Assembly (NCBI GenBank): GCA_003194425.1
Contig: PQXB01000001.1
Location: 250,444 to 282,443 of the forward strand
Source: Candidatus Methanophagaceae archaeon
Lineage (GTDB): Archaea > Halobacteriota > Syntropharchaeia > Alkanophagales > Methanospirareceae
Reading direction: 5' to 3'
DNA: 32,000 bases
Shown: positions 1 through 16,877 of the stretch, in pieces
Layout: each line of letters opens with the position of its first letter
How positions within the stretch are numbered: position 1 is the stretch's first letter
Translations under genes and position numbers: made by a program
The notes under the pieces: generated by a model
Seen by the model: only the letters and a program-made list of their open reading frames with translations
Told to the model about the DNA's origin: nothing
Databases searched by the model: none

Positions 1-1
1 C

Positions 2-376
2 CGCGAACCAGAGCAGAGCGGAGAGAGGAACTGCTCTAAACCCGTTTGCCCCGTTTTCCGTTTCAATAAACTCGCAAATTTCTTCGGGGTCTGCCCACCC
101 GACTTCCTTCTTGTAGGGGGCGAACTTCTTTTCAAGCAGTTTTTCCACTCGCTTGGCGTGCTGGCTCGGCGTCCTGCAGACCTGCGCCAAATTCTGCTGC
201 ATTTCAAGTGCCGTTAAAAACTGCGTGCTGCTGCTACTGCTCCTGCTGCCACCGCCGTTGCTAAGTTTCAACTCTTTAAAGACACGCTTCAGTCCTGCTT
301 CGTCAAAGCTCAAGCCCAGGATTTTAGAGGACATAAAAGACGGGAACTCCCAAATCCTCTTTCTCTTTGCGTTCAT
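2..376 (-). CDS. hypothetical protein, N-terminal part (continues past the left edge of the window)
   Basis: Found by manual minus-strand translation. It is absent from the supplied track, presumably because it has no stop inside the window. ATG at 376-374 (second in-frame ATG at 334-332) gives MNAKRKRIWEFPSFMSSKILGLSFDEAGLKRVFKELKLSNGGGSRSSSSSTQFLTALEMQQNLAQVCRTPSQHAKRVEKLLEKKFAPYKKEVGWADPEEICEFIETENG..., open to position 2. Plus-strand track ORFs 153..410 and 367..606 are its shadows. No family recognised. Confidence 0.4.
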   Translation of the reverse strand, partial: MNAKRKRIWEFPSFMSSKILGLSFDEAGLKRVFKELKLSNGGGSRSSSSSTQFLTALEMQQNLAQVCRTPSQHAKRVEKLLEKKFAPYKKEVGWADPEEICEFIETENGANGFRAVPLSALLWFA

Positions 377-394
377 TTTCAGTAACCCCCCTAC

Positions 395-556
395 TTACGA
401 GGCTTGGTAAAGCTGGCAGCCCTCGAGGAACCACGAGCCTAACTCTTCTTTTATCCGCCCAATCCTTTCGTCCAAGCCGTCCAAGTCTTCCAACTCGTCC
501 AAGTCCTCGATCTTTCTCAACTCCTTCAACAATTTCGTTATTTCCATTTCGTTCAT
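395..556 (-). CDS. small acidic coiled-coil-like hypothetical protein (53 aa)
   Basis: Below the ORF-track size cut-off. Manual translation: MNEMEITKLLKELRKIEDLDELEDLDGLDERIGRIKEELGSWFLEGCQLYQAS*. The ATG at 556-554 is preceded by AAGGAGAG about 8 nt upstream, complementary to the 16S 3' end in this window. An AT-rich duplicated ACATATAAAA (599-608, 611-620) lies upstream as possible TATA elements. Confidence 0.45.
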   Translation of the reverse strand: MNEMEITKLLKELRKIEDLDELEDLDGLDERIGRIKEELGSWFLEGCQLYQAS

Positions 557-695
557 TCGCTTACTCTCCTTCTTTATTTGTTTTAGGTTTTCCTAAATAC
601 ATATAAAAACACATATAAAATAAGAAAATTAGGCACACAAATAGCAACCCCTAAAAATCTTTGGTCTGTTAAAGCAAGCCCAAATAAGTTCGGTT

Positions 696-1184
696 TTAGT
701 GAGAGAACCGAAGCCCTTTCCCTTTTTTTTCCCGCCGCCGCTCTCCAGGTTTGCAGGAATGCACCCCAGTCGCGCAGAAAATCTCAAAATGCTTCAGCCA
801 CTGTGGATAATCTGGCGCCGACTGCACAAACCTTACCAAATTCTTTATCTGCTCAATCGTCTTCGCTTCCAACTCGTGCTCAATTATGCAGGCGTCTTTG
901 TCCGCCGTCTCCTTCGGCACATTGATAATTTCCAGAAACGCCCTTATAATTTCGTGCCGGTCCCTCACAATTTCTGCTATTTCTTTTCCCTTTGGTGTTA
1001 AGGTAACGCCGTCGTACTTGCGATAAATAACGAGACTCTTGTCGTCCAGTTTCTTTGCCATTTCTACAGCGCTCGCAGGCGTAACGCTCAAAGCTCGTGC
1101 AATGTCCCTTATCCTCGCGTAGCCCTTCTGCTCCGAGATGTTCAGAATCGCCTCGAGGTAGTCCTCCGCTTTTCTTGTCAGCAT
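696..1184 (-). CDS. DtxR/MntR/IdeR-family metal-dependent transcriptional repressor
   Basis: 162-aa ORF. N-terminal winged-HTH signature (AEDYLEAILNISEQKGYARIRDIARALSVTPASAVEMAKKLDDKSLV) followed by the dimerisation/metal-binding helix region (LTPKGKEIAEIVRDRHEIIRAFLE...ACIIEHELE), as is typical of the family. Confidence 0.9.
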   Translation of the reverse strand: MLTRKAEDYLEAILNISEQKGYARIRDIARALSVTPASAVEMAKKLDDKSLVIYRKYDGVTLTPKGKEIAEIVRDRHEIIRAFLEIINVPKETADKDACIIEHELEAKTIEQIKNLVRFVQSAPDYPQWLKHFEIFCATGVHSCKPGERRREKKGKGLRFSH

Positions 1185-1185
1185 A

Positions 1186-1284
1186 CCTAATATTGTTAGG
1201 GTAGCCCTTATTTAAATTTTCAATTTGAACTTCAAAGATTGTTACCGCTTTGACTTAGAATTATTGTCGAAAACGACAATTATT
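1186..1284. promoter_or_regulatory. divergent promoter/operator region with three palindromes (candidate metalloregulator operators)
   Basis: (i) CCTAA-N5-TTAGG at 1186-1200, overlapping TTAGGGTAGCC at 1196-1206. The latter resembles the left half of the DtxR/IdeR consensus TTAGGTTAGCCTAACCTAA. (ii) TTTGAAcTTCAAA at 1224-1236. (iii) AATTATTGTCG-AAAA-CGACAATTATT at 1259-1284: 11-bp arms with one mismatch and a perfect 7-bp core, about 30-50 bp upstream of the ATG at 1313 in AT-rich TATA-like sequence. Confidence 0.35.
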
Positions 1285-1312
1285 TAAAGATAAATTTATT
1301 TTAAAATTAAAA

Positions 1313-4300
1313 ATGAAAAAAATAGGAAAATTATCGGTTGTTAGTGTTCTTTGCGCGTTTGTTTTTGTGAGTGTCCTGCTACTAACTGCAGCAGTGCCAG
1401 CGTCGGCAACTTCGTCGGCAACTTCGTCGGCAACTTACCCGACGCTTCAGTACGACGCACAGCGAACTGGGAACGTGGGCGGTGCTGCACCAGAAACCGC
1501 CTCTCTGCTGTGGCAGTCGGGCGAGAAGACCGCAGGCTGCGTGCAAGCAGGTCCGGTTGTCTTGGACGGCAGGGTCTTTTTCACTACTTGGTGGTCGGGA
1601 GGAATGGGAGTTGAGGGGAACGCCAGCGACGCTCTCTACTGCCTCGACGAGGAGACGGGTGAGGAGGTTTGGAACAACACCGCAGTCTTCGGCGCTTCTA
1701 CTGCGGCGGTCGCAGCGGCAGAAGGGAAGTTGTTTGTGGGCACGCACCGCGGGAATTTCACTTGCGTTGACACCACGAGTGGCGAGATTTTGTGGAGCAG
1801 GCGGGTAGAAGAGAACCCGTCGTGGTACGGAGTTGGATCTTCTCCGCTCGTCTTTGACGGGACGGTCTTTGTGCTAACCTTCTCGGACGGCACGCTGCAC
1901 GCCTTCTCTTTCGAGGGTGCAGAACTCTGGAACTTCTCCACAGGTGAGGAAATATTTAAGTACGCGTCGCCCTCCGCTTACGAGGACAAAATCTTCTTCG
2001 CAGGCAACTCCACAGCGGCCGCGGGGCAGCACGGACGGCACGCCTTGTACTGCCTTAACTTGAGCACGCACGAGGAGGAGTGGAATTTCACGACTGACAC
2101 AGAGGTCCGGGGGACGCCTACGATTTGGAGCGAAGGAGGGGAAGGCGGGCTGGTCTTCTTTACCACGAAATATGTCTTTGGAAAGGAGTACGGGATTTAC
2201 GCGCTTAACGCAACCACAGGCGAGGAGGTTTGGTACAAAAAACACAAATCCAGCTGGGCTTCGCCTGCGGTGAGCAACGGACGGCTCTACATCGGCGGTT
2301 CTTCTGTCGACACCACTTTCTACTGCTACGACGCGAGGGACGGCACGCTAATTTGGGAGAACGAGGAAATGGGCGGAGCGGTAGATTCGTCGCCTGTGGT
2401 CGCCGACGGCAAGGTCTATTTTGGCGAGAGCAAGGTCAACGGAACGGTCTACTGTTTAGACGCTGAGAACGGTTCGGTGCTTTGGAACTACACTCTCTAC
2501 ATTCCGCCGGGCTTCGGTGGAGGCTTCAACTCGGCTTCGCCCCCCGCGGTTGCAGACGGCACACTCTTTGTCGGGGTAGACAACGTGGGCGTTCTCGCGT
2601 TCCGAGACCCTCTCCTCCCAGACCCACTCTTTTGGGAAGGCGAGGTGACGCTAACCGAGAACGCAACGACCACAGTTACCGCGCACGACAGCGGTGCGAG
2701 CTACGAAATTAACCAAACGACCGCACTCGGAGCGCTCGCCGCAGCGGCAGCCGCAGGCGGGTTCAACTACACCGTGAGCGACAAGTGGTACGCGAGCTGG
2801 GGTTCACTGCTCGTGGATTCGATCGCGGGAAAGTGGAACGACCCGGTCACTTGGGACGGCTGGCTGTACTGGGTGAACTACCCGGACGACCCGATGCCTG
2901 GGGTTGGTCCGAACAAATACGAAGTGGAAGACGGCGACCTCGTGACCTTTTACTACGGTGGAATGAGCGCGACGCCCGAGAACACCCCGATGCTACTGCG
3001 GATTCGTGTTCGTGTCACCGGTGCGAGCGTAGTTCAATGGAACAGCGTGACCAAAGACGACGCCACTAATTTTTCAGTGGAAGTCGGGTTAGACGAGAGC
3101 GAGGAGGTGGAGTTCCGCGTCTCCTCGGACTCTGGCGCAGGCACGGCTTACGAGTGGTCGTGGTCAGTGAACGGAGCGGAGACAAAAAAATCTGAAGGAG
3201 AAAGCACAAATTTATCGTTTGTCTTTGAAGAATACGGCATTTACAATGTCAGCGTCGTGGGAGTAGGAGTAGGTGAGGCAGAAAATGAAACTGTGTCTGC
3301 GACTTGGAATGTCTCGATCTGGCTGGTAGTAGGAGAAGAGAACGACGCTTGTGAACTGGAGGGGCTTGAGGAGTACCAGCTGCGGTTTTTAAAGCGACCC
3401 GAGCGGCTGGTTTCGATGGCGCCGAGTTGCACCGAGATTTTATTCGCGGTGGGTGCAGGCGAGAGCGTTGTCGGCGTTACCGAGTTCTGCGACTACCCGC
3501 CAGAAGTGAAAGAGAAGAAGGAGAGCGGGGAGATTGCAGTAATCGGGGGGTATTCAACTCCGAATTTTGAGAAAATCGTGGATTTGGAGCCGGATTTGGT
3601 CGTTGGTGCTCACGGCAACCCTGCTGGTGTGATTTATTACCTGCTGGAGTCGGAATATCCGGTTTACGCGATGCATCCAAAAAGCATTGACGAGATTTTT
3701 GCACACATAAAAGTCGCAGGCGCGGTAACGAGCTGCGATGAAAACGCGTCTTCGCTCTTGGAAAATTTGAGTGAGCGGCTGGAGACTGTGAAGGAGAAGA
3801 CGGAGCTGTTAGAAGAGGAGCAGAAGCCGAGAGTGTTTTACAACATCGGCGACTTCTTTACCGCGGGCAAGGAGACATTTGCAGACGAGATAATTGAAAT
3901 CGCAGGCGGCAAAAACATCGCGGCTGCAGACGGCAAGACAGGATATTTTATAATGAGCCTTGAGGAGCTCATTGAAAAGAATCCGCAGGTAATCCTCTGC
4001 GACAGCGGAATGGGCGAGATGAGTTTTGCGTACGAGCAAATAATGAACGACGAGCGGCTGAAGAATGTGAGTGCTGTGAAGAATAATCGGGTTTATGTAA
4101 TCGACGGAGATATAATATCAAGACCAGGTCCGAGGGTGGTAGACGGGGTGGAAGCGGTTCATCAGAATTTCAGTGATTTTTTCGCCGCTAACACCCAAGA
4201 GTGCGAACTGAAAATTTCCACCGACAAACTCAACTACAGCCCCAACGAGACGATGAATGTCGCTCTACGCATCTCAAACCCAACTAACAGCACGCTAACA

Positions 4301-4624
4301 TTCAACTGGTTTGCAGGGATTCCGCAGTTCGAGTTCTGGACGCACCTTTACTCAACGCCGATTTCCCCAGGCTTTAACCAGTCTCTCAATACGACACTAC
4401 AAGTGGGCGACTGGGGTGCGACGCCTTTCGGTCTCGTGTTTTACGTGGACTTGCAGGAGCCAGAGACACTTCAGCCGCTAACCGCGGATGTTTGGTGGTG
4501 CCTGTATTCGCCTGGCGAGGCAGGAGTAGGAGAAGGAGTGCCAGAAAGCATAGAAAATATCGGAGATTTCGTTCTCTTGAATGTTTTACATAAAACTTCA
4601 CATCACCAAAAACCTCTCTCGTGA
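1313..4624 (+). CDS. secreted multidomain surface protein: PQQ-like beta-propeller + DUF4430-like + PKD-like + periplasmic binding protein (BtuF/FhuD/FecB type) + conserved C-terminal beta-sandwich; 3' end appears disrupted
   Basis: - Signal peptide: MKKIGKLSVVSVLCAFVFVSVLLLTAAVPASA.
- Repeated beta-propeller blades of the type G.lyalda.tGe.lW (about 1450-2600).
- DUF4430-type motif WDGWLYWVNYPDD...YEVEDGDLVTFYYG (about 2650-2980).
- PBP core RLVSMAPSCTEILFAVGAG...VVGVTEFCDYP...PDLVV...VYVIDGDIISRPGPRVVDG (about 3400-4170).
- C-terminal domain ISTDKLNYSPNETM...VGDWGATPF (about 4200-4510), shared with the products of 20965..26514 and 26511..28064.
- The last 15-20 codons (from about 4555-4570 to the stop at 4622-4624) read through the reverse complement of the LAGLIDADG ORF, so they are probably not native. 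Confidence 0.85.
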   Translation: MKKIGKLSVVSVLCAFVFVSVLLLTAAVPASATSSATSSATYPTLQYDAQRTGNVGGAAPETASLLWQSGEKTAGCVQAGPVVLDGRVFFTTWWSGGMGVEGNASDALYCLDEETGEEVWNNTAVFGASTAAVAAAEGKLFVGTHRGNFTCVDTTSGEILWSRRVEENPSWYGVGSSPLVFDGTVFVLTFSDGTLHAFSFEGAELWNFSTGEEIFKYASPSAYEDKIFFAGNSTAAAGQHGRHALYCLNLSTHEEEWNFTTDTEVRGTPTIWSEGGEGGLVFFTTKYVFGKEYGIYALNATTGEEVWYKKHKSSWASPAVSNGRLYIGGSSVDTTFYCYDARDGTLIWENEEMGGAVDSSPVVADGKVYFGESKVNGTVYCLDAENGSVLWNYTLYIPPGFGGGFNSASPPAVADGTLFVGVDNVGVLAFRDPLLPDPLFWEGEVTLTENATTTVTAHDSGASYEINQTTALGALAAAAAAGGFNYTVSDKWYASWGSLLVDSIAGKWNDPVTWDGWLYWVNYPDDPMPGVGPNKYEVEDGDLVTFYYGGMSATPENTPMLLRIRVRVTGASVVQWNSVTKDDATNFSVEVGLDESEEVEFRVSSDSGAGTAYEWSWSVNGAETKKSEGESTNLSFVFEEYGIYNVSVVGVGVGEAENETVSATWNVSIWLVVGEENDACELEGLEEYQLRFLKRPERLVSMAPSCTEILFAVGAGESVVGVTEFCDYPPEVKEKKESGEIAVIGGYSTPNFEKIVDLEPDLVVGAHGNPAGVIYYLLESEYPVYAMHPKSIDEIFAHIKVAGAVTSCDENASSLLENLSERLETVKEKTELLEEEQKPRVFYNIGDFFTAGKETFADEIIEIAGGKNIAAADGKTGYFIMSLEELIEKNPQVILCDSGMGEMSFAYEQIMNDERLKNVSAVKNNRVYVIDGDIISRPGPRVVDGVEAVHQNFSDFFAANTQECELKISTDKLNYSPNETMNVALRISNPTNSTLTFNWFAGIPQFEFWTHLYSTPISPGFNQSLNTTLQVGDWGATPFGLVFYVDLQEPETLQPLTADVWWCLYSPGEAGVGEGVPESIENIGDFVLLNVLHKTSHHQKPLS
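1403..1437 (+). repeat. 12-bp tandem repeat (about 2.9 copies, TCGGCAACTTCG) just after the signal peptide, encoding TSSATSSAT
   Basis: Direct reading: tcggcaacttcg tcggcaacttcg tcggcaactta. Confidence 0.8.
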
Positions 4625-5033
4625 GAGATTGAAACCTCTCCGCCAATTTTTGTGAATGCGTTGTGTAGTGAACTCTCCATCTCGCATCTATTCCACCATC
4701 AAAAAGCAAATGACCAAAAAATTCCATAAGGTCTCCATTTATAGAAATCCTCATTTTTGGATTCCTTATTTCATCACTCGCCTTTTCTGTTTTGATGAGT
4801 TGGATGCCAGATTCGAGTTCCAACCCAACATCGTTGCAAATATTGTTCAACACTTTTAGCGGATAATTGTTCTTCGCTTCTTTCCATTTGTACAGTTGTC
4901 GTTGTGAGAGGTTGAACTGTTTAGCGACATTTTTTACAGTGCCATATTTCACTAACAGCTGTCTCCACAATTTTTCTCTTAATCTCTCAGTAGGCATTGC
5001 ATAAATCCCGTCCATCTGAATTTGCACCTTCAT
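4554..5033 (-). pseudogene. truncated LAGLIDADG homing endonuclease (HTH N-terminus plus first LAGLIDADG motif only)
   Basis: Track ORF 4386..5033. The first roughly 160 aa look genuine: an HTH-like GTVKNVAKQFNLSQRQLYKWK, then the LAGLIDADG-type motif LMEFFGHLLFDGGI and beta-strand-like VFGDVKFYVKHSRERN. No second motif follows. The remaining 55 aa (4386-4553) are low-complexity read-through on the antisense of the surface-protein gene. An SD-like GAAGGTG lies upstream of the ATG at 5033. The ORF sits directly after the last recognisable 23S sequence and on the same strand as the rRNA. Confidence 0.6.
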
Positions 5034-5465
5034 TTTACACCTTCGTTTCTGTCCTTTGTTTTTATTAAAATGCTACCGCTTGGATTTCTGACCCACCTGA
5101 GTCAACCTTAGGGCGCCCTCGATATTTTTTCAAGGGCATGGCGCCCCACCTGAACAGCCCACCTACCGGTGTTCTCTCGCGTCAAGCAAGAGTAAGGGTC
5201 ACAACTTCGGAAGGGTAGTGTTCCATTGGCGGCTCTGTGCCTCCTGGCGAAGGCACTTCACTGCCTCCTACCTACGCTCTACATCCGAAGTCGTAGCTCA
5301 ACGGCAGACTGCTGTAAAACTCCACGGGGTCTTCGCTTCCCCTTGGGGGTCCCCGGTCTTTTCGCCGGGACGATGATTTCGCCGGTTTCCAGCTAGGGAC
5401 AGTGGAAGGCTCATTCCTTCTTTCGTGCAAGCCGCCAATTAAGCGGCTAGGTACTACGCTACCTT

Positions 5466-5630
5466 TCTCCCCTCCTCCGCTGCTGAGTGCCTTACTTCTG
5501 CTTAGCTTGCCTTAAATTCGCTTAGCTTTGCTTCTGCTTGGCTATTTTATAGGAGGTAAAAAAGCAATGAAAAACGAAAAGAAAAAGGGTTCTTTTCTCA
5601 AATTCGTGCTTAGTAGCAGAAGAGGAGGTT
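5466..5630 (-). other. 23S rRNA mini-intron (about 165 nt) in the CTTAAG|GTAGCG block of domain IV
   Basis: The conserved sequence gctacctt (5458-5465) continues as aagagggtcagagttaccc only at 5631. The insert is closed by an inverted repeat, cctcctccgctgct (5471-5484) against agcagaagaggagg (5615-5628). That fits a splicing helix of the archaeal bulge-helix-bulge kind. The boundary is ambiguous by 2 nt because of a tt repeat. Confidence 0.7.
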
Positions 5631-6173
5631 AAGAGGGTCAGAGTTACCCCCGCCGTTTATAGGTCCTTCAACCCCTTGAAAAGGGCTTTCAGATACCTAC
5701 ACTGGGCAGGAGTCAGTGACCGTACTAACCCTTACGGGCTTGCGGTCACCTGTGTTGTTATTAGACAGTTAGCCTTCCCTTGTCACTGCGACCTGCCTCT
5801 CGCAAGGCAGGCACTCCTTCTCCCGAAGTTACAGAGCGATTTTGCCGATTTCCCTTAGCTGGATTTCCCCGACACGCCTGAGCCTTCTCAGCTAGGGGCA
5901 CCTGTGTCGGTTCTCGGTACGAACGACCAGCCGCCTTTTTCACGGGCTCCTGGGCTTGACTGACTTCCTTGCGGAAGCCTTAACACATTCGCCCGCTTCT
6001 CGCCGTTACGGCTCTCCACGGGCTTCGGTGCTTGGACAGTGCGATGACACTGCTCAATCTACCCAGAAGCGTCAGGTGTCCTGTCCTCGCGGACGGACGT
6101 AGGCTGGACGGCGCAGGAATATTAACCTGCTTCCCATTTGATGTGCTCCAGTTGGGACACATCTTAGGATCGG

Positions 6174-6204
<31 letters not shown>

Positions 6205-7450
6205 AACCTAGCCCCTTCGGCGGTCGGGATTCTCACCCGACTTTGCTGCTACTATCGCCAGGATTCTCGTTTCTGCCCGGTCCACACCTTCTCACGAAGA
6301 TGCTTCCGCCCAAGCAGAACGCCCCTCTACCGGATCTCCCGCCTTAAGCAGGAGCCCTGGGGTCTCGGTGGTCGGCTTGAGTCCCTTCCATTTTCGATGC
6401 TACAGACCTCGGCTGGTGAGCTATTACGCTTTCCTTAGAGGGTAGCTGCTTCTAAGCTAACCTCCCAGCTGTTTGTGGTCTGCAACGCTCTTTAGTGTTA
6501 ACACTTAGCCGACACTTGGGGACCTTAACCTCAGTCTGGGTTATTTCCCTCGCGGACTGGGAGCTTACCCCCCAGCCCGGACTCCGACCTTCTACAACGA
6601 TGGCGCCTTCGGAGTTTGACAGGAGGGCGAGGTCTTTCGACCCCGGGTCCTCCAATCGGTAGCTCTACAACGTCATCAATCTCCAGTCGGGTCATACTTT
6701 GGTATGTTTCGAGGGGAACCAGCTATCGCCGGGTTTGATTGGCCTTTTACCACTAAACGCAGGTCATCCGAGAGATTTGCAAGTCATCACCGGTTCGGCC
6801 CTCCATCCTCCTTTCGGAGAACTTCAGCCTGCCCACGCTTAGATCACCCGGCTTCGGGTCATATTCCAATGACTCCACGCAGTTCGTACGTCGTTCCTCT
6901 CCCTACCTTCCTTTCGAAAAGATGCGGATGCGAACTTGTTGGTTACCCTGCGGCTCCCCTTTTTCAGGTTAGCCTCGCCACTGAAATATACTCCCTGGCC
7001 CGTTCTCCAGAACGTACGATGCGACCCTGTTCCAGAACCCTCGTACTCACCCCTCGCGGGATTTTCCTTCGGACCCCTTCGTCACTTTCAAGCCGCATCA
7101 CTCTATCACCATTTAATTTCAGGCTCTTTTCACCTCCTTATTTGGGGTACTTTTCAGCTTTCCCTCACGGTACTATTCCGCTATCGGTCTCAAGACGTGT
7201 TTAGTTTTGGAGGTTGGTAGCCCCCAGATTCCCGCAGGAAATTCAACCTACGGTACTCAAGTAAAGAGTCAAGCCCTCTGCCTTACGCCTACGAGGTTTT
7301 CACTCTCTTTGGCGCCGCGTTCCAGCGGACTTCGGCTTCAACAGGTCGGGCTTACACGACCCCCACTTACAACACCACATCTCCCTTCCCTTTCGAGAGG
7401 GATTCGGTTTGAACTCCGCCGTTTTCACTCGCCGTTACTCACGGCATCTC

Positions 7451-7559
7451 AAACCCCTTTCTTAAAACATTTTCTTAAAAAAAAAATCTTTACCAAAAGA
7501 ACCAAAAGATTCTTTCCGTAAAGGCTTTCTTCTAAAGAAAGGCTTTTAAGAAAGGGTTT
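7451..7559 (-). other. 109-nt AT-rich structured insertion in 23S domain I (intron or expansion segment)
   Basis: The conserved AAGAGAAATCAAT|GAGATGCCGTGAGTAACGGCGAGTGAA (E. coli equivalent AAAGAAATCAACCGAGAT...) is interrupted. The insert is closed by a 16-bp inverted repeat with a 1-nt bulge, aaacccctttcttaaaa (7451-7467) against ttttaagaaagggttt (7544-7559). It contains inner hairpins at 7525-7541 (ctttctt cta aagaaag) and aatcttt/aaagatt. Confidence 0.5.
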
Positions 7560-7946
7560 ATTGATTTCTCTTCCTGCTCCTACTAAGATGTTTCAATTCA
7601 GAGCGTTCCCAATCCCACTACTAACGCAGCAGGACCGACCCCGAAGGGTCAAGAGTTCCCATTAGGGCATCCTCGGTTCAAAGGCTCCTTGTACCTACCC
7701 GAGGCTTCTCGCAACTTGGCACGCCCCTCTTCAGCGCTTGAGCCGAGCCATTCATTAAATGGCATAAATACCAGCATTTCACCTCTCCCAAGCTCATTAA
7801 ATGTCAGAGTTGCAAAGTGCGTGTGACGACTTCACCTGGCAGAACGAGACAGTGCAACCTTAACTCACTGCACTGCCCTCTGCCATCAGTCCTTCGCTGA
7901 ACGACAACCCGTGTCGTCAGGTGCATTTTTTCCTTTCCACCAAGAG

Positions 7947-8019
7947 TGGACTCGCTGGGATTTGAACCCAGGGCCTTCGCCTCGCAAAGGCGACGATCTT
8001 CCAACTGATCTACGAGCCC
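7947..8019 (-). tRNA. tRNA-Ala (UGC) in the 16S-23S spacer
   Basis: RC reads GGGCTCGTAGATCAGTTGGAAGATCGTCGCCTTTGCGAGGCGAAGGCCCTGGGTTCAAATCCCAGCGAGTCCA. It is a 73-nt cloverleaf with the G3:U70 identity pair, anticodon TGC and T-loop TTCAAAT. No CCA is encoded. Confidence 0.92.
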
Positions 8020-8180
8020 CGTTCCGTTCTCTACCCAGCCACTTATTTGATTTATTCTAACTTAAACTTACTTTACTAAGTTTAGTTTTACTTTACCTAA
8101 CCCGACGCTCTTTCAGTTCTGACTGGTAAGAAAAAATTAGGAGGTGATCCAGCCGCAGATTCCTCTACGGCTACCTTGTT

Positions 8181-8916
8181 CACGCGGTTCCCCATGTCGC
8201 CATGAGGCGTGGACTATATCACCATCTCAAGGACTTGCTTCTTTCTGGGATGATTCGAGCCGATCAAATATGCAAAATCCCTGTAGGATTCACATCGGAC
8301 AAAGAATCTCCAGTAGCACGGGTCATTTTTCTTACTCGGGTTGTGGATTTTTCCGCATTTTATCCCAAGCTCGGTAAGAAACGAACATACTTCTTCAAGG
8401 TCTTTCTTATCCTTTTGTGCGAAGTAAATGTACATTCGTGCACCCGGCTTCTTCGGAACACTACCTTCTGCATCGAAGTATCCACGAACGTAGTCTATTT
8501 TGTTCTGTCGAGTCTCGATTTTTGCATCGCGCAAAATAAATTTGGAGAACTCGACAACATAGACATTTCGCGATTTTCCTTCGCGGTAAATCCACGCATT
8601 GTATCCCATTTTACGAATCATCGCTGTGATGAAGTAGATGAATGATTCATCGTTCTGGGTAACACGATATGTGTATTTCCGCTCAGTTGCATCATGCAGT
8701 ATTCCTATGAGATAGGCTTTCGTCATCCCTTCTTTACCTTGAGAGCTCGGCGTGTAGTCTCTGAGGGGTCAAGAACCTAAACAAAAAAAGAAAAGGTTCC
8801 GACTTCCCTGCTGATTGACCCCACCCAACCCGTTGCCAGGTTGGGATACACGGGTGTTTCCAGCATATAGCCAAGTTTTTCCCAATCCCTCGCGGGAAAG
8901 GGGTCGCAACTTTCTT
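8181..8916 (-). mobile_element. 16S rRNA intron 1 (about 736 nt) carrying a LAGLIDADG homing endonuclease gene, inserted in the AAGTCGTAACAAGGTAGCC block near the 3' end
   Basis: ggctaccttgtt ends at 8180 and the continuation acgactt starts at 8917 (2-nt tt ambiguity). The interior holds ORF 8214..8726 plus about 190 nt of structured sequence, for example a 7-bp hairpin cccaacc/ggttggg around 8826-8850. Confidence 0.8.
8214..8726 (-). CDS. LAGLIDADG homing endonuclease (two-motif, I-DmoI-like size), intron-encoded
   Basis: 170-aa ORF on the rRNA strand inside the 16S intron. Motif 1 is AYLIGILHDATE at the N-terminus and motif 2 is YVRGYFDAEGSV about 95 aa later. There are no internal stops. 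Confidence 0.85.
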   Translation of the reverse strand: MTKAYLIGILHDATERKYTYRVTQNDESFIYFITAMIRKMGYNAWIYREGKSRNVYVVEFSKFILRDAKIETRQNKIDYVRGYFDAEGSVPKKPGARMYIYFAQKDKKDLEEVCSFLTELGIKCGKIHNPSKKNDPCYWRFFVRCESYRDFAYLIGSNHPRKKQVLEMVI

Positions 8917-8994
8917 ACGACTTAGCCCCCCTTGCGAGACTTAGGTTCGAACGCGTCAAGAAACGCGGCCTCACCTAAACCCCACTCGGCTGGC

Positions 8995-9035
<41 letters not shown>

Positions 9036-9448
9036 CCCCATTTTGAGGGGCGATTACTACGGATTCCTCGTTCACGAGGGCGAGTTGCAGCCCTCGATCC
9101 CAACCAGGAGCAGCTTTAGGGGATTACCTTCCCCTTTCGGGGTCGTTACCCATTGTACTGCCCATTGTAGCACGCGTGTAGCCCGGAAGATTCGGGGCGT
9201 ACTGACCTACCGTGGCCCGCTTCTTCCTCCACCTTAGCGGCGGCAGTCCTCGCAGAGTGCCCATCTTCCTTGCGGAAATGCTGGCAACTGCGAGTGCGGG
9301 TCTCGCCCGTTGCCTGACTTAACAGGATGCTTCACAACACGAACTGCCGACGGCCATGCGCCACCTCTCAGCTAATCCAGTAAGGTCTTCAGCCTGACCT
9401 TCATCTCGCTGTCCCCTCCGGTGAGTTTTCCGGCGTTGAATCCAATTG

Positions 9449-9499
<51 letters not shown>

Positions 9500-9612
9500 G
9501 CTGCCACCGCTCGCTCTCGCCTCTCTCCCTGTTTTTCAAAAAAATGTTGAAAGAAAAAAAAGAAAAAAGAAAAGTAGGGAATTAGGATTTTGGGTTGAGC
9601 GAGTGCTGGTTT
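9500..9612 (-). other. 16S rRNA intron 2 (113 nt) splitting GGCTGAAAC|TTAAAGGAATTGG (E. coli region about 907-915)
   Basis: Exon sequence cgccaattcctttaag ends at about 9496-9499 and resumes as gtttcagccttgcgacc at about 9609-9613. The junction is ambiguous within a 4-nt aaac repeat. The insert is closed by the inverted repeat ctcgctc (9510-9516) against gagcgag (9598-9604). The interior is an A-rich low-complexity tract. Confidence 0.75.
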
Positions 9613-9729
9613 CAGCCTTGCGACCGTACTCCCCAGATGGCGGGCTTAACGGCTTCCCTTCGGCGCTGACATCGCTCGCAGCAATGCCAACACCCAGCCC
9701 GCATCGTTTACAGCCAGGACTACCCGGGT

Positions 9730-9931
9730 TTTTAGTGAGAAGGGAGAAAACATTTGAGTTTGATGACTTTGTCCGGATGAATAATCTTCACTTACTGTCA
9801 CTCTTAGACTTACTGTCAAAGACTTACTGACAACCTTAACGATCTTGGTGTAAGTCTTCAAGAACGATTCTACTCTGCGTTCCAATTTCACATTGGCATC
9901 ATCCATTTGTTTTGTTTTCTCCCTCACTCAT
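9730..9931 (-). other. 16S rRNA intron 3 (about 202 nt) splitting GGATTAGATA|CCCGGGTAGTCC (E. coli region about 785-806)
   Basis: ggactacccgggt ends at 9729 and atctaatccggttcgcgaccc resumes at 9932 (1-nt ambiguity). The interior contains three copies of ACTTACTG(T/A)CA at about 9789-9832. Confidence 0.75.
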
Positions 9932-10173
9932 ATCTAATCCGGTTCGCGACCCTGGCCTTCGTCCCTCACCGTCGGACCCGGTCTGGTCAGACGCCTTCGC
10001 TGCCGGTGGTCCCCCAAGGATTAAAAGATTTCACCCCTACCCCTGGAGTACCTCTGACCTCTCCCGGTCCCAAGCCGAGCAGTATTCCCTGAACGCCTGA
10101 CCGTTAAGCGGTCAAATTTCCCAAGGAACTTACCCAGCCGGCTACGGACGCTTTAGACCCAATAAACGTGGCT

Positions 10174-10218
<45 letters not shown>

Positions 10219-10904
10219 ACCCAGCCCTTCCTTCAGGTGCTCTTTAGACACCTGAACAGCCTCCGTTGGAGGCACTCAGAGTTCCCTTATCGCGCTTCCG
10301 CGCATTGTAAAGTTTTCGCGCCTGATGCGTCCCGTAGGACCTGGGTTCTTCTCTCAGAACCCATCTCCGGGCTATTGCTCTCACAACCCGTACCGATCGT
10401 CGGCTTGTTAATCCGTTACATTAACAACGACCTAATCGGCCGCAGACCTATCCTTGGGCGCCCCGCCTCTCGACGCGGCTTTCGAGCATCGCGCATTCCA
10501 GCTGCCGATGCCCTATCCGGTATTAGCCCCAGTTTCCCAGGGGTTGTCCCAGACCCAAGGGCAAGTTGTCCACGTGTTACTGAGCCGTCCGCCGGGTTAC
10601 CTCGCATTCTTCTCCCGAAGGAGAAAAAAGGAGGCACCCACGACTAACATGGCTTAATCGAACTCTGATGGCAGTAGCCTCTGGCAGGATCAACCAGTAT
10701 TGAACTGCAGGGTTTCACAACACATTGCACACACTTCTCTGCACTTACCTACCTTCTACACTGTTTCTTACTCACCAATCAGATTTACTGGCTCGTCAGA
10801 TTAGGCTTACGTCGGACACGAACCTGCTTTCTTTCGCGGCCCCACTTTTTTTGCAGCGCAGCGGAAGTCAATTCCGCTTGCTACAAATACACATTTAATC
10901 TGTC

Positions 10905-10916
10905 TCTATAAAAACC
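10905..10916 (-). promoter_or_regulatory. candidate TATA box of the rRNA operon promoter
   Basis: The minus strand reads GAAGGTTTTTATAGAG. TTTTTATA sits about 200 nt upstream of the mature 16S 5' end, immediately after the stop of the upstream malic enzyme gene. No other strong TATA-like element was seen in 10700-10926. Confidence 0.3.
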
Positions 10917-10926
10917 TTCAATTTTT

Positions 10927-12294
10927 TTATCGTGATTTTATCCTGAATATCCGCTCTCGTGCCTTCTTTTCCAACTCGTCCGCGGAGATCCCTATTTTTG
11001 CTGCGCCCTGCCCCTGCGCGGTCATCCCCACCGCGACCGCCTCGCGCACGTACATCTCGCTCTCGTCCATTCCGGGAATTATGTAGCCCTCGCTTAACCC
11101 TTTCCCCTTCCCTTCTTCCTCCGCGTACTTCGCGATTGCGTTCGCCGCCGCGAGGCACATCTCGTCTGTTATGCATGTGGCACGCACATCTAGAGCGCCC
11201 CTAAAGACCGCAGGGAAGCCCAGAGAATTATTTACTTGATTCTCGAAGTCGCTCCTCCCGGTGGCAACAATCCTCGCCCCCGCCTCCTTCGCTTCCCCGG
11301 GCCAAATCTCTGGCACCGGATTCGCACACGCAAAGACAACCGCGTCGTCCGCCATTCCCTCCACCCACTCCTTTTTTATCACGCCCGGACCCGGCGTCGA
11401 GAGCGCGACGCAAACATCCGCCCCGCGCATCGCCTCTTTAATTCCTCCGCTTCTACCTTCTTTGTTCGTCTTCTCGCAGATTTCCCACTTGCTCTTGTCC
11501 CCGCTCTCTCCACTCTCTCCACTCTCTCCACTCTCTCCGCTCTCTCCCGCTCTCTCCCCAGCTCTCTCCTCCCCTCTCCCTCGCACGTCCTCTCTCTCCC
11601 GGTTCAAGATCCCGCGGCTGTCCACCACTACCAAATTTCCCCACTTCGCCCCCGCAACGCGCAAGTATTTCGCGACGCAAATATTCGCCGCACCCGCGCC
11701 GACCAGCGCAACAGTCACCTCGCTCAGCCGCTTCCCCACCACTTTCAACGCGTTCAGCAGCCCTGCGAGAATTACCAACGCCGTCCCCTGCTGGTCGTCG
11801 TGCCAAACCGGCACCCCCAACTCAGGCAACTCCGCCTGCAGCCGCTCCAGAATGTAGTAGCACTTCGGACTCTCAATGTCTTCCAAATTCACGCCCCCAA
11901 ACCCGGGCGACAGCCACTTCACCGCGTTTATTATCTCCTCCGCATCTGTCGTCGCCAAGCAAAGCGGGAACGCGTCCACGCCGCCCAAATATTTGAAGAG
12001 CATTGCTTTGCCCTCCATCACAGGAAGCGCCGCCTCCGGTCCCACATTTCCCAGCCCCAGCACCCGCGTCCCGTCGGTAACAATCGCCACCGAATTGCCC
12101 TTGTTCGTGTACTCAAAGACCCTCTCTCTGCTGTTTTTTATCGCACGGCTCGGCACCGCCACTCCCGGCGTGTACCAGACTGCGAAATCGTCGTAGCTCT
12201 GAACCGGCGCCTTCAGCCCGATTTCGATTTTCCCTCTGTATTGAGCGTGGCGTTCTAAAGCGAGCTCTTCGGGCTCGGACTTGTTTGGCGCCAC
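10927..12294 (-). CDS. NAD(P)-dependent malic enzyme (short archaeal/bacterial type) with a low-complexity insertion
   Basis: Family motifs are present: YTPGVA, VAIVTDGTRVLGLGNVGPEAALPVMEGKAMLFK, GVNLEDI, VWHDDQQGTA and LVGAGAAN. The longest ORF runs to a TTG at 12435, but that would abut the divergent gene with no spacer and add a K/E-rich 47-aa leader. I favour the GTG at 12294-12292 (V in SLVAPNK, about 16 aa before ALERHAQYRGKIEI), which has GGAGAGGTGA upstream. The start is uncertain. Confidence 0.8.
   Translation of the reverse strand: MAPNKSEPEELALERHAQYRGKIEIGLKAPVQSYDDFAVWYTPGVAVPSRAIKNSRERVFEYTNKGNSVAIVTDGTRVLGLGNVGPEAALPVMEGKAMLFKYLGGVDAFPLCLATTDAEEIINAVKWLSPGFGGVNLEDIESPKCYYILERLQAELPELGVPVWHDDQQGTALVILAGLLNALKVVGKRLSEVTVALVGAGAANICVAKYLRVAGAKWGNLVVVDSRGILNREREDVRGRGEERAGERAGESGESGESGESGESGDKSKWEICEKTNKEGRSGGIKEAMRGADVCVALSTPGPGVIKKEWVEGMADDAVVFACANPVPEIWPGEAKEAGARIVATGRSDFENQVNNSLGFPAVFRGALDVRATCITDEMCLAAANAIAKYAEEEGKGKGLSEGYIIPGMDESEMYVREAVAVGMTAQGQGAAKIGISADELEKKARERIFRIKSR
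11503..11569 (-). repeat. 9-bp tandem repeat ((A/G)CTCTCTCC, about 7 units) inside the malic enzyme gene, encoding GERAGERAGESGESGESGESGESG
   Basis: Direct reading of 11503-11569: gctctctcc actctctcc x3 gctctctcc cgctctctcc ccagctctctcc. Confidence 0.85.
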
Positions 12295-12435
12295 TAACGA
12301 CTCTTTCTTCACCTCTCCCTTCTCCTTCTTCTCTTGTCTCCTCTTGATAATTACTCTTGTCTCTTCTTGGTCTTGATAAACTTTCCTCTCTTCTTGGGAA
12401 TTCTTTTTAATCTCTAATAAGAGAGAAAATATCAA

Positions 12436-12942
12436 ATGAAAATATCAATGGACATTGAGCTGAAGGACATTCCGGGTCAGTTGGTGCTGGCACTGAAGCC
12501 TGTCTCGGACTTCGGCGGAAATATCCTCAGCGTGCTGCACCAGCGAGAGAAGAAGACTCCCTCGGGCAAAATCCCTGTTCAAGTGGTGCTCGAAATCGCA
12601 GAGACTGCGACTGCAGAGAGGCGGTTGGAGGGGCTGGTAGAGGAGTTAAAGAAGCAGGGGGTGAATGTTGTAAGGGTGGGAAAAGAGCGGCTGCGGGAGT
12701 CGGTGGTCGTTCTCCTGATCGGACACATCGTGCACACAGACCTGCGAGAGACGATTGACAAAATAGACCGCACGGGGTTCGCAGAAGTAGTCGCACTCAC
12801 TCTTTCAATGCCCGGCGTGAATAAGAAGTCCTCTGCTTCGGTTACGGTAAGCGCGGTGGGCAGGGAGGAGTTGAAAGCGGCGTTGAAGATTTTAGAAGCG
12901 ACTGCGGACGGAAAGGGCATTGCAGTTGTCTCACCTATTTAA
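12436..12942 (+). CDS. ACT-domain (amino-acid-binding) protein, archaeal type, upstream of homoserine dehydrogenase
   Basis: 168-aa ORF. Two ACT-like beta-alpha-beta-beta-alpha-beta units are suggested by IELKDIPGQLVLALKPVSDFGGNILSV and the second half VVVLLIGHIVHTDLRETIDKI. It sits 12 bp upstream of hom in the same orientation. An alternative start is the ATG at 12448. Confidence 0.7.
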   Translation: MKISMDIELKDIPGQLVLALKPVSDFGGNILSVLHQREKKTPSGKIPVQVVLEIAETATAERRLEGLVEELKKQGVNVVRVGKERLRESVVVLLIGHIVHTDLRETIDKIDRTGFAEVVALTLSMPGVNKKSSASVTVSAVGREELKAALKILEATADGKGIAVVSPI

Positions 12943-12954
12943 ACGGAAAATAAA

Positions 12955-13989
12955 ATGAAGCGTAAAAATGAGACGGTGAGGATTTCGATAATTGGGTTCG
13001 GGTACGTGGGCAGCGGAGTGGCGGAGGTTGTGACGCGGAAGCGGGCGGAAATAGCGAGGAAGCACGGGTTGGACTTGAAAATCGTCGGCGTTGCGGACTT
13101 GCGGGGCGTTGTCGTGGACGAGGACGGGCTGAGCGCGAAGACTTTGAGGAAACTCAGTGCAGGAGAGAGAGGAGTAGGAAGTTGGAAAGAGGCAGCAGCG
13201 GAAGGACTGACGAGTTTGGACTTGATAAAAGAGGTGGAGCACGAGGTTGTGGTAGAGGCGACGCCGACGAATGTCGAGACAGGCGAGCCGGGTCTGACGC
13301 ACATAATTTCAGCGTTGGAGGCGGGCAGGCACGTGGTGACCTCGAACAAGGGACCGTTGGCGTTGGAGTACCGAAGGCTGACCGAACTCGCAGCGAGGCG
13401 GGGGAGGGAGTTGAGGTTTGAAGCCGCGGTGGGTGGTGCAATGCCGTTAATTTCGCTGGTAAGGCAGAACCTCGCGGGCAACGGCGTAATTTCTTTGAGG
13501 GGCATTTTGAACGGCACCTGCAACTACATCCTGACACGAATGGCGGAGGAGGGGCTGCCCTACGAGCATGTTTTGAAGGAGGCGAAGGAGCTTGGAATCG
13601 CCGAGACCGACCCTTCCAAAGATGTTGAGGGCACGGACACGGCGGTGAAACTGGTTATTCTCGCGAACTCGGTCTTTGAGAGGAACGCGACTTACAAAGA
13701 TGTGGCGGTGGCAGGAATCACGGAAATTACGACCGACGCGTTGCGGCTCGCGAGTGAAGCGGGGTTTGTGATAAAATTAATCGGCGAGGTAAATAAGGAA
13801 GGTTTCTTGAGAGTTGCGCCGCGGTTAGTTCCGAAAGCCGACCCGCTGAATGTCGGCGGCACGCTGAACGTCGCAAAGGTAAAGACCGATTTGGCTGGTG
13901 AGATTACGGTAATCGGAAAAGGCGCGGGTCCGATCGAGGCTGCGAGCGCCGTCCTCTCGGACATAATTTGGACCGCGAAGCATTTTTGA
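12955..13989 (+). CDS. hom: homoserine dehydrogenase
   Basis: 344-aa ORF. It has an N-terminal Rossmann motif ISIIGFGYVGSGV, then VVTSNKGPLA, ILNGTCNYILTRM and the ETDPS..DVEG.D...KLVILAN catalytic-domain motifs. Confidence 0.9.
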   Translation: MKRKNETVRISIIGFGYVGSGVAEVVTRKRAEIARKHGLDLKIVGVADLRGVVVDEDGLSAKTLRKLSAGERGVGSWKEAAAEGLTSLDLIKEVEHEVVVEATPTNVETGEPGLTHIISALEAGRHVVTSNKGPLALEYRRLTELAARRGRELRFEAAVGGAMPLISLVRQNLAGNGVISLRGILNGTCNYILTRMAEEGLPYEHVLKEAKELGIAETDPSKDVEGTDTAVKLVILANSVFERNATYKDVAVAGITEITTDALRLASEAGFVIKLIGEVNKEGFLRVAPRLVPKADPLNVGGTLNVAKVKTDLAGEITVIGKGAGPIEAASAVLSDIIWTAKHF

Positions 13990-13991
13990 TC

Positions 13992-14010
13992 AAACTTTTA
14001 GAAAAAGTTT
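13992..14010. terminator. A/T hairpin between convergent hom and tRNA-Tyr (possible bidirectional terminator)
   Basis: aaactttt-aga-aaaagttt is a perfect 8-bp stem with T-runs on both strands, 3 nt after the hom stop and 4 nt after the tRNA 3' end. Confidence 0.3.
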
Positions 14011-14013
14011 TAA

Positions 14014-14132
14014 TCCCGCCTCCCGGATTTGAACCGGGGATATCGCGGTCTCCGCGCGCGGTAATACGACCTTTTGGAGGAGGTCAAAGTCACACTACAG
14101 CCGCGCACTCTTCCAAACTGAGTTAAGGCGGG
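14014..14132 (-). tRNA. tRNA-Tyr (GUA) with a 45-nt intron at the canonical 37/38 position
   Basis: RC reads CCCGCCT TA ACTC AGTTTGGAA GAGT G CGCGG CTGTAG [45-nt intron tgtgactttg...cgcggag] A CCGCG ATATC CCCGG TTCAAAT CCGGG AGGCGGG A. The mature tRNA is 74 nt. It has the C1:G72 pair typical of archaeal and eukaryal tRNA-Tyr and an A73 discriminator. No CCA is encoded. Confidence 0.85.
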
Positions 14133-14165
14133 ATTTTATTCTCTGCTGAATATTTGCGATTTACA

Positions 14166-15593: not shown

Positions 15594-16167
15594 AAGCAGG
15601 GGAAATAGGGCAACTGCAACCGCGACTCACGGAACCGGAACGGTTGTGGCAGTGGGAACTGTGCTGGCAGGTGCAAGCACGGGTCTTAATCTTGAGGGGA
15701 TTTTTTATAACGGAGGGACGAAAATTGGGTATGTAGTTCATATTTTTATTGCACGAAGAAAAGTTAAAAAGCAGGAAAAAGTTAAAAAGCAGGATAAGAT
15801 AAAAGAGATATTAAAGGAAGCGAAGATGTTAATGACAAACAAATATCATCACGCTCATCTGCATCATTGGTTGGATGGGAGCGCCGAAGAAGGAAGGAAA
15901 GAAGGAGTAAGTGAGGGGCGCTACAAAAATACCGCAAAAATATGAATAAAACAGGGAATAGAGAGATAGAGGATAGTATAGAAGGGGGTATAAGAAGGTG
16001 AAAGGGAAGAGCGCGGAGAAAAGCAGGGAAAAAACGAGTGAAAGGGGAAAAGCAAGTAGAAATAGAGCAGAATACCGAAACCTTTTTATACATACTACCG
16101 AAAAGCATATATACCCCTTCAAAGAAATAGAAGGTATAAAAAAAATTAGGAGGTGAAAACAAAAAAA

Positions 16168-16788: not shown

Positions 16789-16826
16789 AGGAGAACAGAA
16801 AAAAAAGGACCATAAAAAATTTGGAT

Positions 16827-16867: not shown

Positions 16868-16877
16868 GAACGGAAAA

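Follow-up and report, generated by a model that had tools for sequence, protein, structure and literature searches.

In the current analysis of a 32,000-nucleotide stretch of DNA from a Candidatus Methanophagaceae archaeon, referred to here as the window, the apparent truncation of a 23S rRNA gene has been traced to a single junction at which about 3.6 kb has most probably been lost during assembly, and not to a 23S rRNA that is split. We infer both the identity of the source genome and a computational, as opposed to biological, origin of the join. The gene is interrupted at this place by an insert which, on its predicted fold, is a canonical archaeal bulge-helix-bulge (BHB) intron of known kind, and the ORF within it is a putative LAGLIDADG homing endonuclease, also of known kind. 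An earlier note on this DNA had left three explanations for the truncation, namely a 23S rRNA split and supplied in trans, a dead copy of the operon and an assembly chimera.

The archaeal LSU model of Rfam matches the minus strand of the window from 7764 down to approximately model position 2403 of 2987. The 5' end of exon 1 (Table 1) is approximate, as this match begins at model position 16. Exon 1 terminates with ...GGUGGGUCAGAA, within a hairpin loop. The gene had been placed earlier from about 7780 to about 5071; its identity and strand stand, the exon ends at 5086 and not at 5071, and the bases 5085-5071, which resemble rRNA, are the h' strand of the intron. That the 3' part of the gene is absent is borne out by the covariance search, which detects no LSU domain V/VI sequence in the whole window, including the region 4386-5070 where these domains might have been hidden. 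The 5S gene listed as missing is not expected here, the collinear contig of a close relative (L060) having tRNA-Cys after the 23S gene. Beyond exon 1 lies an AT-rich stretch (36-40% GC) with an ORF at 5033..4386, and the GC content rises sharply to 59% at about 4560; the window as a whole has 52.1% GC.

Table 1. Features around the junction and in the rRNA operon of the window
Feature	Coordinates	Strand	Remarks
Secreted multidomain protein gene	1313..4581	plus	genuine to second base of codon 1090
Artificial 14-codon tail of the 1103-aa ORF, NVLHKTSHHQKPLS and stop	4582..4624	plus	antisense of endonuclease ORF
Spurious tail of the 215-aa ORF	4386..4581	minus	antisense of C-terminal domain of neighbour gene
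Junction 4581/4582	4577..4582		TTGA (4577-4580) common to both parent sequences
Putative endonuclease, genuine part (codons 1-150 of 298/300 aa)	4582..5033	minus	full-length homologues
Predicted BHB intron, 5' 504 nt of 931 nt	4582..5085	minus	3' splice strand and exon 2 absent
23S rRNA exon 1	5086..7779	minus	Rfam LSU_rRNA_archaea model positions ~1-2403 of 2987
tRNA-Ala(UGC)	7946..8019	minus	in 16S-23S spacer
16S rRNA gene	8139..10700	minus	broken near 3' end by group I intron
Group I intron of 16S	8181..8916	minus	RF00028 match
170-aa LAGLIDADG ORF in 16S group I intron	8214..8726	minus	

The intron has been folded in L052, a contig with the same sequence as the window down to 4582. Its length is about 931 nt in L052 and L060, from the fold and the covariance-model alignment. 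In the minimum free energy fold of L052 the helices are GGUGGG:UCCACC, UCAG:CUGA and, within the intron, the 13-bp UCCAAGCGGUAGC:GCUGCCGUUUGGA, with AAA and AUA as the bulges, and the full intron thus comprises two 3-nt bulges, a 4-bp helix between them and flanking helices. The window keeps only the 5' strand of this splice motif, the AAA bulge followed by UCCAAGCGGUAGC. In L060 the Rfam LSU model puts an insert of 931-932 nt after UCAGAA, the hairpin being restored on its removal, and the covariance alignment reads UCAGAA, 932 nt, UCCACCGUAGAG with high posterior probability. The predicted cuts, GAA/A and AU/A, yield the same exon join as the covariance model. The insertion site lies in the hairpin loop at Rfam model position ~2403/2404; the boundary of exon 1 and intron reads ...CAGAA/ATCCACCGTAG... 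and exon 2 opens with GGGGATAACGGAGTTGTCTCC.... Archaeal BHB introns are excised by the tRNA-splicing endonuclease. A distant homologue (L070), with an endonuclease 54% identical, has an intron in the same 23S loop; in this single comparison the helices are compensated (UCUCGG:UCGAGA and UUAG:CUAA), the h' helix differs and the bulges are relaxed.

Two Logan unitigs, L044 and L059, stop exactly at the ATCCA common to both intron boundaries (30-nt k-1 overlaps), from which a second path ...GAAATCCACCGTAG... in the read set can be deduced, either spliced RNA or an intron-less allele. The boundary has been set at 5086/5085, to which the fold, the unitig ends and the alignment to the covariance model all point. 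A boundary at 5071, at a repeated GUAG, was rejected as no BHB register there gave flanking helices. Group I identity of the 23S insert was also rejected: the matches to RF00028 in the window and in L039, L040 and L052 are confined to the 16S intron, the ORF fills about 900 of the 931 nt and leaves no room for a ribozyme core, and no splice register combines a U ahead of the 5' site with a G as the last base.

Residues 1-150 of the 215-aa ORF align to full-length LAGLIDADG proteins of 298/300 aa (P0001, P0196-P0200), recovered by an exhaustive search of representative proteins. The ORF had been described as the start of an intron-encoded LAGLIDADG endonuclease, with which this alignment agrees; its protein-like character had been said to fade after about 160 aa, and the endonuclease is in fact cut after codon 150. 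The remaining region, 4386..4581, is 98% matched by orthologues of the neighbour gene on the plus strand. The full endonuclease consists of an N-terminal HTH-like region and a double-motif LAGLIDADG part, the first motif of which (LMEFFGHLLFDGG) is kept in the window and the second (LWRFVSAAYVCDG) lost. In Pfam the full-length P0196 scores 26.0 bits on PF14528 (LAGLIDADG_3; cutoff 22.5) and the homologue P0004 scores 43.6 bits in two stretches; the truncated ORF of the window falls below the LAGLIDADG_3 cutoff and has only weak HTH matches. A word-indexed homologue search with the N-terminal half of the endonuclease gave no match, and searches of PHROGs and PDB sequences gave merely weak HTH and intein-endonuclease hints.

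The plus strand at the junction reads ...CTCTTGAA/TGTTTTAC..., with no Ns; base 4581 (A) agrees with the left parent and 4582 onward with the right parent. The breakpoint had been estimated earlier at about 4553-4571 and is now moved to 4581/4582. The observation that two genes are broken at one point holds at this position, for both the endonuclease ORF and the convergent gene encoding 1103 aa. The junction is absent from every other public assembly searched, and many other assemblies break in the same region. It is found in one assembly only among those searched, both parent sequences being continuous in independent assemblies, as is characteristic of an artefact.

The 1103-aa protein is comprised of a PQQ-like β-propeller, a DUF4430-like region and a Peripla_BP_2 domain (Pfam), and its C-terminal domain is common to two paralogues encoded in the window. 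The earlier note had taken this gene as truncated by comparison with the tails of these paralogues, which is misleading: the true orthologues finish ...ESIENIGDFVLLKNE and stop (...FVLLKNE), three codons beyond the junction. The gene is interrupted as claimed, but barely, only three codons and the stop being swapped for the 14-codon read-through. Orthologues with the natural end are of 704 aa and 1088 aa. In a 90%-identity protein cluster of 14 members the 1103-aa read-through form is found only in PXF51094.1, the protein of the source assembly itself. Directly after the natural end of the gene a 55-aa ORF is present in all the 10 contigs listed out of 15. An origin of the gene as an internal chimera, from the 704-aa form and a Peripla_BP_2 form, was considered and rejected, an independent 1088-aa version (P0219 on L065) having the same architecture. 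The sole Logan match to the natural end is L071 (SRR6662717), 98-99% identical and of the 704-aa variant.

Twelve independent contigs (L001, L039-L042, L052, L054-L058 and L060), 96.7-100% identical to the rRNA/intron side of the window, leave the window sequence at 4577-4582. All the twelve encode the full endonuclease of 298/300 aa and are continuous through the breakpoint, so that no discontinuity is shared by the relatives, and the longer ones also hold the rest of the 23S gene. The 140-kb contig L060, from a close relative, follows the window collinearly to the left and to the right of the junction, the aligned window segments being 1-3020, 4209-4581, 4577-8180 and 8906-11797. At the junction it carries 3,613 extra nt, with the end of the surface-protein gene, six small ORFs, tRNA-Cys, 23S exon 2 and the 3' half of the intron, and its LSU gene is complete (model 1-2987). 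The small ORFs of this block include the 55-aa ORF, genes of the HicA and DUF5678 families and two ORFs of about 170 aa. The locus is polymorphic among strains.

A join between two unrelated loci or organisms was at first favoured from the flanks of two contigs: L052 has MlrC-like, Cdc6 and RadA genes after the 23S gene, L050 has no rRNA within 2.2 kb, and the surface-protein gene and the operon seemed not to be adjacent. This explanation was overturned by L060, which independently has the same gene and operon 2.6 kb apart and convergent. Moreover one and the same read set has contigs with 100% identity to the window to the left and to the right of the junction, and L052 itself appears mosaic. 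A chimera of this kind is now considered very improbable. The assembly chimera proposed in the earlier note thus stands as to the artefact, which is best supported, and fails as to its nature, the probable loss being between true convergent neighbours.

The read set in question is SRR6664617, the Logan contigs of which are 100% identical to the window at 1-3119 and 9793-5081. L059 is 100% identical to 5110-4582, shares with the window the allele Ser135 and continues without a break across the entire endonuclease gene and on into 23S exon 2. On the basis of this identity and of published statistics, the window probably belongs to the G37 ANME-1a draft genome, with SRR6664617 as its sample. This draft, the reads of which are in BioProject PRJNA418316, was obtained with SPAdes 3.5.0 from 500-bp paired ends and 5-kb mate pairs, followed by binning and targeted reassembly, and comprises 5 scaffolds of 1.40 Mb in total with 52% GC, one 16S and one 23S gene, Cys being the only tRNA missing. 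The lost block spans the 3' ~585 LSU model positions and the tRNA-Cys(GCA) gene.

These observations bear on a 23S rRNA that is truly split, with 5' 2.4 kb encoded here and 3' ~0.6 kb elsewhere, the ribosome being put together from both pieces in trans. All that speaks for it is that the window has no domains V-VI. Relatives 97-99% identical have a continuous 23S gene at this locus, the break lies inside an intron ORF and not at a processing site, and the matching read set has the intact intron and endonuclease allele. The 504-nt intron remnant could not be removed, since the 3' strand of the BHB motif is lost. Further, the block also takes away tRNA-Cys, the tRNA reported as absent from the entire draft, which implies that the block has not been relocated within the assembly. 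A split 23S is accordingly regarded as scarcely credible.

A dead second operon, truncated by deletion while an intact operon is present elsewhere, is also highly unlikely. A truncated 23S beside an intact 16S and tRNA-Ala could be a decaying copy, but a single 16S and a single 23S are reported for the probable source genome, and the relatives have one rRNA operon at this locus, which corresponds to the single operon locus of L060. From the 16S through the spacer and tRNA-Ala to exon 1 the sequence agrees at 100% with contigs of the abundant population, without any sign of decay.

The usual arrangement of the locus in this ANME-1 lineage is, from left to right, the surface-protein gene and six small ORFs followed on the opposite strand by tRNA-Cys, 23S, tRNA-Ala and 16S, the 23S gene being broken in the hairpin loop by the predicted 931-nt BHB intron with its putative 298/300-aa LAGLIDADG endonuclease. 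According to the preferred explanation of an assembly loss, about 3.6 kb in the middle of the locus would have been left unassembled in the deposited assembly, and the two flanking contig ends would have been fused directly at a 4-base overlap. Assemblers may close a gap on such a tiny overlap. The join would create the apparent truncation of the 23S, the half endonuclease ORF and the read-through tail of the neighbour gene. The intron side ends 499 nt past a de Bruijn branch point at 5081; at 4185/4209 there are branch points of the population, beyond which the gene side extends for 372-396 nt. Each distance is about one paired-end insert length, which is suggestive of reads having been recruited to the binned contigs before reassembly. 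A mate-pair circularisation junction was rejected by reasoning, as it would join a right end to a left end with a duplication-like topology, as against the deletion-like join seen here.

The join might also be a real 3.6-kb deletion, mediated by microhomology, in a minority of genome copies or cells, the assembler having taken the deleted path. The clean, N-free junction with the 4-nt microhomology TTGA is what such a deletion would leave, and there is scattered extra similarity around the junction (31/80 matches at offset -2). The lost block has toxin-antitoxin-like genes (HicA and DUF5678), typical of variable regions, and the polymorphism of the locus among strains points the same way. Archaea are often polyploid, and intact copies in a polyploid cell could provide the 23S rRNA and tRNA-Cys. 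However, L059 does not split at the junction position, so the deletion allele is absent from or rare in SRR6664617; no other public assembly searched has the junction; the deletion would be lethal if fixed; and the branch-point distances (499 nt and ~380 nt) fit the edge of read recruitment better. We consider such a deletion unlikely. Its persistence in some chromosome copies of a polyploid ANME-1 archaeon, with the cells sustained by intact sister copies, is judged from these sequences to be rather improbable. In the deleted copies the 23S gene would then run out in an intron remnant that cannot be spliced, and tRNA-Cys would be absent, a snapshot of intron- or endonuclease-associated damage to an rRNA operon tolerated via polyploidy.

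Were the truncation real, an uncultured methane-oxidising archaeon would have a split or disabled LSU rRNA, a remarkable finding. The evidence points instead to a defect in the assembly of a reference MAG in wide use. About 3.6 kb would be absent from the deposited genome at this place, the 3' end of the 23S gene and the "missing" tRNA-Cys among them, and the 1103-aa read-through and the 215-aa ORF, both deposited as protein models, would be artefactual; the true locus can be reconstructed from the relatives. Like short-read MAG misjoins at rRNA operons, the junction is present in a single assembly, essential single-copy genes are lost and the parents are continuous elsewhere. Unlike the usual misjoins, it is base-precise, without Ns and between true neighbours, and mimics a clean deletion rather than an inter-genome chimera. 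Ribosomal RNA in pieces occurs in some organelles and protists. The window resembles such fragmented genes on paper, in having an LSU gene without its 3' domains, and differs from them in that there is no processing signal at the break, which is within an intron ORF, all close relatives are continuous and no second piece is known.

BHB introns with LAGLIDADG enzymes are known in the 23S genes of Desulfurococcus mobilis (I-DmoI) and Pyrobaculum organotrophum (I-PorI). Like these, the ANME-1 intron interrupts a hairpin loop of the 23S rRNA, shows the canonical h-B-H-B-h' motif (6-bp exon-exon helix, 4-bp central helix, two 3-nt bulges and 13-bp intron helix) and is nearly filled by an ORF for a double-motif LAGLIDADG protein. 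It differs from them in its host, a euryarchaeal ANME-1 methanotroph, in an extra HTH-like region of about 90 aa at the N-terminus of the endonuclease, in a reading frame that extends 6-8 codons into exon 2 and in that the window retains only the 5' 504 nt.

The 23S BHB intron beside a 16S group I intron is, in ANME-1, an instance of known intron types and nothing new in kind. The 16S intron is not present in L060, as seen from its alignment to the window. Nawrocki, Jones and Eddy reportedly described in 2018 group I introns in archaeal rRNA genes, and both intron classes in one operon. Similar to their archaeal cases, both classes occur in the operon of the window, where a group I intron near the 3' end of the 16S holds a LAGLIDADG ORF; unlike their group I introns, its 23S intron gives no RF00028 match.

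An archaeal rRNA operon with 16S, tRNA-Ala and 23S genes in that order has been identified by Rfam on the minus strand of the window. No 23S domain V or VI sequence was found by Rfam anywhere in the 32 kb; past about model position 2403 the covariance model is merely stretched across unrelated sequence, which bears out an earlier note on the absence of the 3' domains. The 1103-aa ORF, described there as convergent with an endonuclease-like ORF after the incomplete 23S, is also real in the window.

Features of the window (positions without a contig name) and of related contigs
Feature	Position	Strand	Remark
16S	10700 down to about 8139	-	Rfam
tRNA-Ala	8019-7946	-	Rfam
23S	start near 7780	-	Rfam; match reliable as far as about model position 2403 of 2987
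Group I intron near 16S 3' end	8181-8916	-	736 nt; Rfam RF00028, 54.5 bits
LAGLIDADG_3 ORF in group I intron	8214-8726	-	170 aa; Pfam 1.1e-16
Extra 16S blocks vs contig L052	about 9500-9608 and about 9730-9930	-
ORF after 23S	5033..4386	-	within stretch of 36-40% GC
1103-aa ORF	1313..4624	+	converges on ORF 5033..4386; 240-nt overlap
Cassette in 1103-aa gene	3021-4208	+	1188 nt, in frame
Recurrences of C-terminal domain	26044-26340 and 27630-27905	+
L060 vs window	1-3020		99.0%
L060 vs window	4209-4581		98.4%
L060 vs window	4577-8180		96.7%
L060 vs window	8906-11797		97.4%
tRNA-Cys(GCA)	L060 12407-12479		directly downstream of 23S
Endonuclease ORF 3' ends across splice site	L001 2640-2666; L059 950-986; L060 13166-13190

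A word-indexed search with the ORF that follows the 23S gave no match. An exhaustive search identified a 300-aa protein, 95% identical over residues 1-155 only, together with a family whose members are about 290-300 aa long. Two LAGLIDADG motifs are present in the full-length homologues, and their match to Pfam LAGLIDADG_3 is above the cutoff. The window ORF retains residues 1-150 and continues as the antisense of the adjoining gene, with a GC step up to 59% at about 4560. The proposal of a truncated intron-encoded endonuclease holds with respect to the family, and the homologous part ends at residue 150 rather than at about 160.

On the plus strand the junction reads ...GATTTCGTTCTCTTGAA/TGTTTTACATAAAAC..., the slash marking the join. 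On the left, the parent sequence goes on ...TTGAA/AAATGAATG; the right-hand parent arrives from ...CGCTTTGAC/TGTTTTAC, which places the join at 4581/4582 with TTGA common to both parents. L001, which encodes the 300-aa protein, matches window 6804..4577 at 99.1% identity and then carries the remaining endonuclease and further 23S. Ten further contigs were obtained through look-ups of the 16S-intron protein and a 298-aa endonuclease (ENA, NCBI and Logan assemblies), giving with L001 and L060 an rRNA-side set of twelve. All twelve match the window at 96.7-100%, diverge at one and the same base and encode an intact endonuclease.

On either side of the junction the window is collinear with L060, a contig of 140 kb from a related Methanophagales MAG. 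Between the blocks matching 4209-4581 and 4577-8180, L060 has 3,613 nt absent from the window. At the gene end these comprise the final gene codons, a 55-aa ORF, members of the HicA and DUF5678 families and a pair of ORFs of roughly 170 aa. On the rRNA side they comprise tRNA-Cys(GCA), the 3' portion of a 23S that is complete in L060 (model 1-2987) and the intron's 3' half, with which the 300-aa endonuclease is intact. The 1103-aa gene thus really does lie next to the operon, and what the window displays is a clean loss of the intervening sequence that resembles a deletion. A chimera of distant loci, as contig L052 would suggest, is contradicted by L060 and has only a slight chance of being correct. 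L052, a 17-kb MEGAHIT contig, shares only 88.6% identity with the window and L060 in the 5' part of its 16S (L052 1365-2116). From ~150 nt before the 23S end onward it differs from L060, with MlrC-like, Cdc6 and RadA genes following (8079-16959), and it may be a mosaic of strains joined through conserved rRNA sequence.

The window, with a GC content of 52.1%, fits the G37 ANME-1a draft genome of 1.40 Mb, 5 scaffolds and 52% GC, in which one 23S is present and Cys is the only missing tRNA (Krukenberg et al. 2018, PMC5947290). The block lost at 4581/4582 comprises about 585 23S model positions and the tRNA-Cys gene, matching that single missing tRNA; on this assignment the truncated 23S would be the only one of the source genome. 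For G37, ~500-bp paired-end and ~5-kb mate-pair libraries were assembled with SPAdes 3.5.0, and binning and "targeted reassembly" followed (PMC5947290). On its intron side the join lies 499 nt past a de Bruijn branch point at 5081, and on its gene side 372-396 nt past population branch points at 4185 and 4209; each distance is about one insert length, which fits contigs out of recruited reads. Two contigs may thus have stopped there, mate pairs would have linked their ends across 3.6 kb, and the ends would have been joined on a tiny overlap, as gap closing by an assembler presumably can do.

Logan contigs of SRR6664617 cover window 1-3119 and 9793-5081 at 100% identity. A third, L059, is 100% identical to window 5110-4582, has the window's private Ser135 allele and runs unbroken through the entire endonuclease gene into exon 2. 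A real deletion in a minority of copies is unlikely, since such an allele at appreciable frequency would split L059 at the junction. The loss of 3.6 kb is probably an assembly artefact. With its coordinates corrected, the truncation of the 23S does exist in the deposited sequence and is best explained as an assembly defect; a split 23S, the remarkable reading, is unsupported in view of the intact intron and 23S of the relatives and is, like a dead operon copy, highly improbable. The main value of these observations is a correction to a reference MAG.

The 1103-aa ORF comprises a PQQ-like propeller, a Peripla_BP_2 domain and a C-terminal domain. A metagenome scan with the last of these yielded three JGI contigs with 98-99% identity to window 1-3020 and 4209-4581, in which the protein ends ...ESIENIGDFVLLKNE*, ten bases beyond window 4581. 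The 90%-identity protein cluster holds 704-aa forms and one 1088-aa form with the architecture of the window's protein and the natural end of the relatives; the read-through form occurs in one entry only, PXF51094.1 (record of 1,187,124 nt), which is identical to the window product and hence the entry of the source. The gene thus loses only three codons, and the breakpoint at 4553-4571 taken from paralogue tails in the window was misleading. Some strains have the cassette, an Ig-like stretch with the Peripla_BP_2 domain, and others at 98% identity or more lack it (1088/1092-aa and 704-aa proteins, respectively). A third form (L038) retains the binding domain but has a different tail from 4185 onward, with a FecCD/ABC transporter operon after it. 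The gene is also where most public assemblies break, at 2958-3973. By sequence similarity (37-38% identity) the C-terminal domain (ISTDK...NPT...W...G.WG) is a module shared by three secreted window proteins, also ending those of 1849 aa (DUF3344/CARDB/LTD domains) and 517 aa.

At its boundaries, the complete 23S intron folds into a textbook bulge-helix-bulge (BHB) motif, with a 6-bp exon1:exon2 helix (GGUGGG:UCCACC, the mature rRNA hairpin stem), a 4-bp central helix (UCAG:CUGA), bulges of 3 nt each (AAA and AUA) and a 13-bp intron helix (UCCAAGCGGUAGC:GCUGCCGUUUGGA). Predicted cuts after the second bulge base yield ...UCAGAA/AUCCACCGUAGAG..., exactly where the 932-nt insert of the Rfam model falls, so that exon 1 ends at window 5086. 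Bases 5085-5071, counted as rRNA in the earlier note, are the h' strand of the intron. Two Logan unitigs terminate exactly at the ATCCA common to both intron boundaries, indicating an intron-less or spliced path in that read set. L070, a contig of another lineage, has an intron in this loop too; its endonuclease is 54% identical, its helices are compensated and its bulges relaxed (a single comparison). A group I identity was rejected for this insert, which has no RF00028 hit and no space for a ribozyme core. Among known systems, the nearest are BHB introns in crenarchaeal 23S genes that encode LAGLIDADG proteins; the ANME-1 intron differs from them in an extra N-terminal HTH-like region of its endonuclease and is a further member of this known kind. 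The endonuclease ORF crosses the 3' splice site, its last 6-8 codons being exon 2 sequence, and an exon C/T difference shifts the stop codon to give 298-aa and 300-aa forms.

The group I intron of the 16S, with U ending the exon and G ending the intron, lies after what we take, by our own count, to be the equivalent of E. coli U1498. The two intron types thus occur side by side in one operon. The close relative L060 is without the group I intron, which is thus a presence/absence polymorphism. The 16S has 1806 nt aligned to the 1478-position model; its two extra blocks are possibly small introns that lack an ORF. Near 9788-9796, within the 16S, breaks or differences occur in several assemblies.
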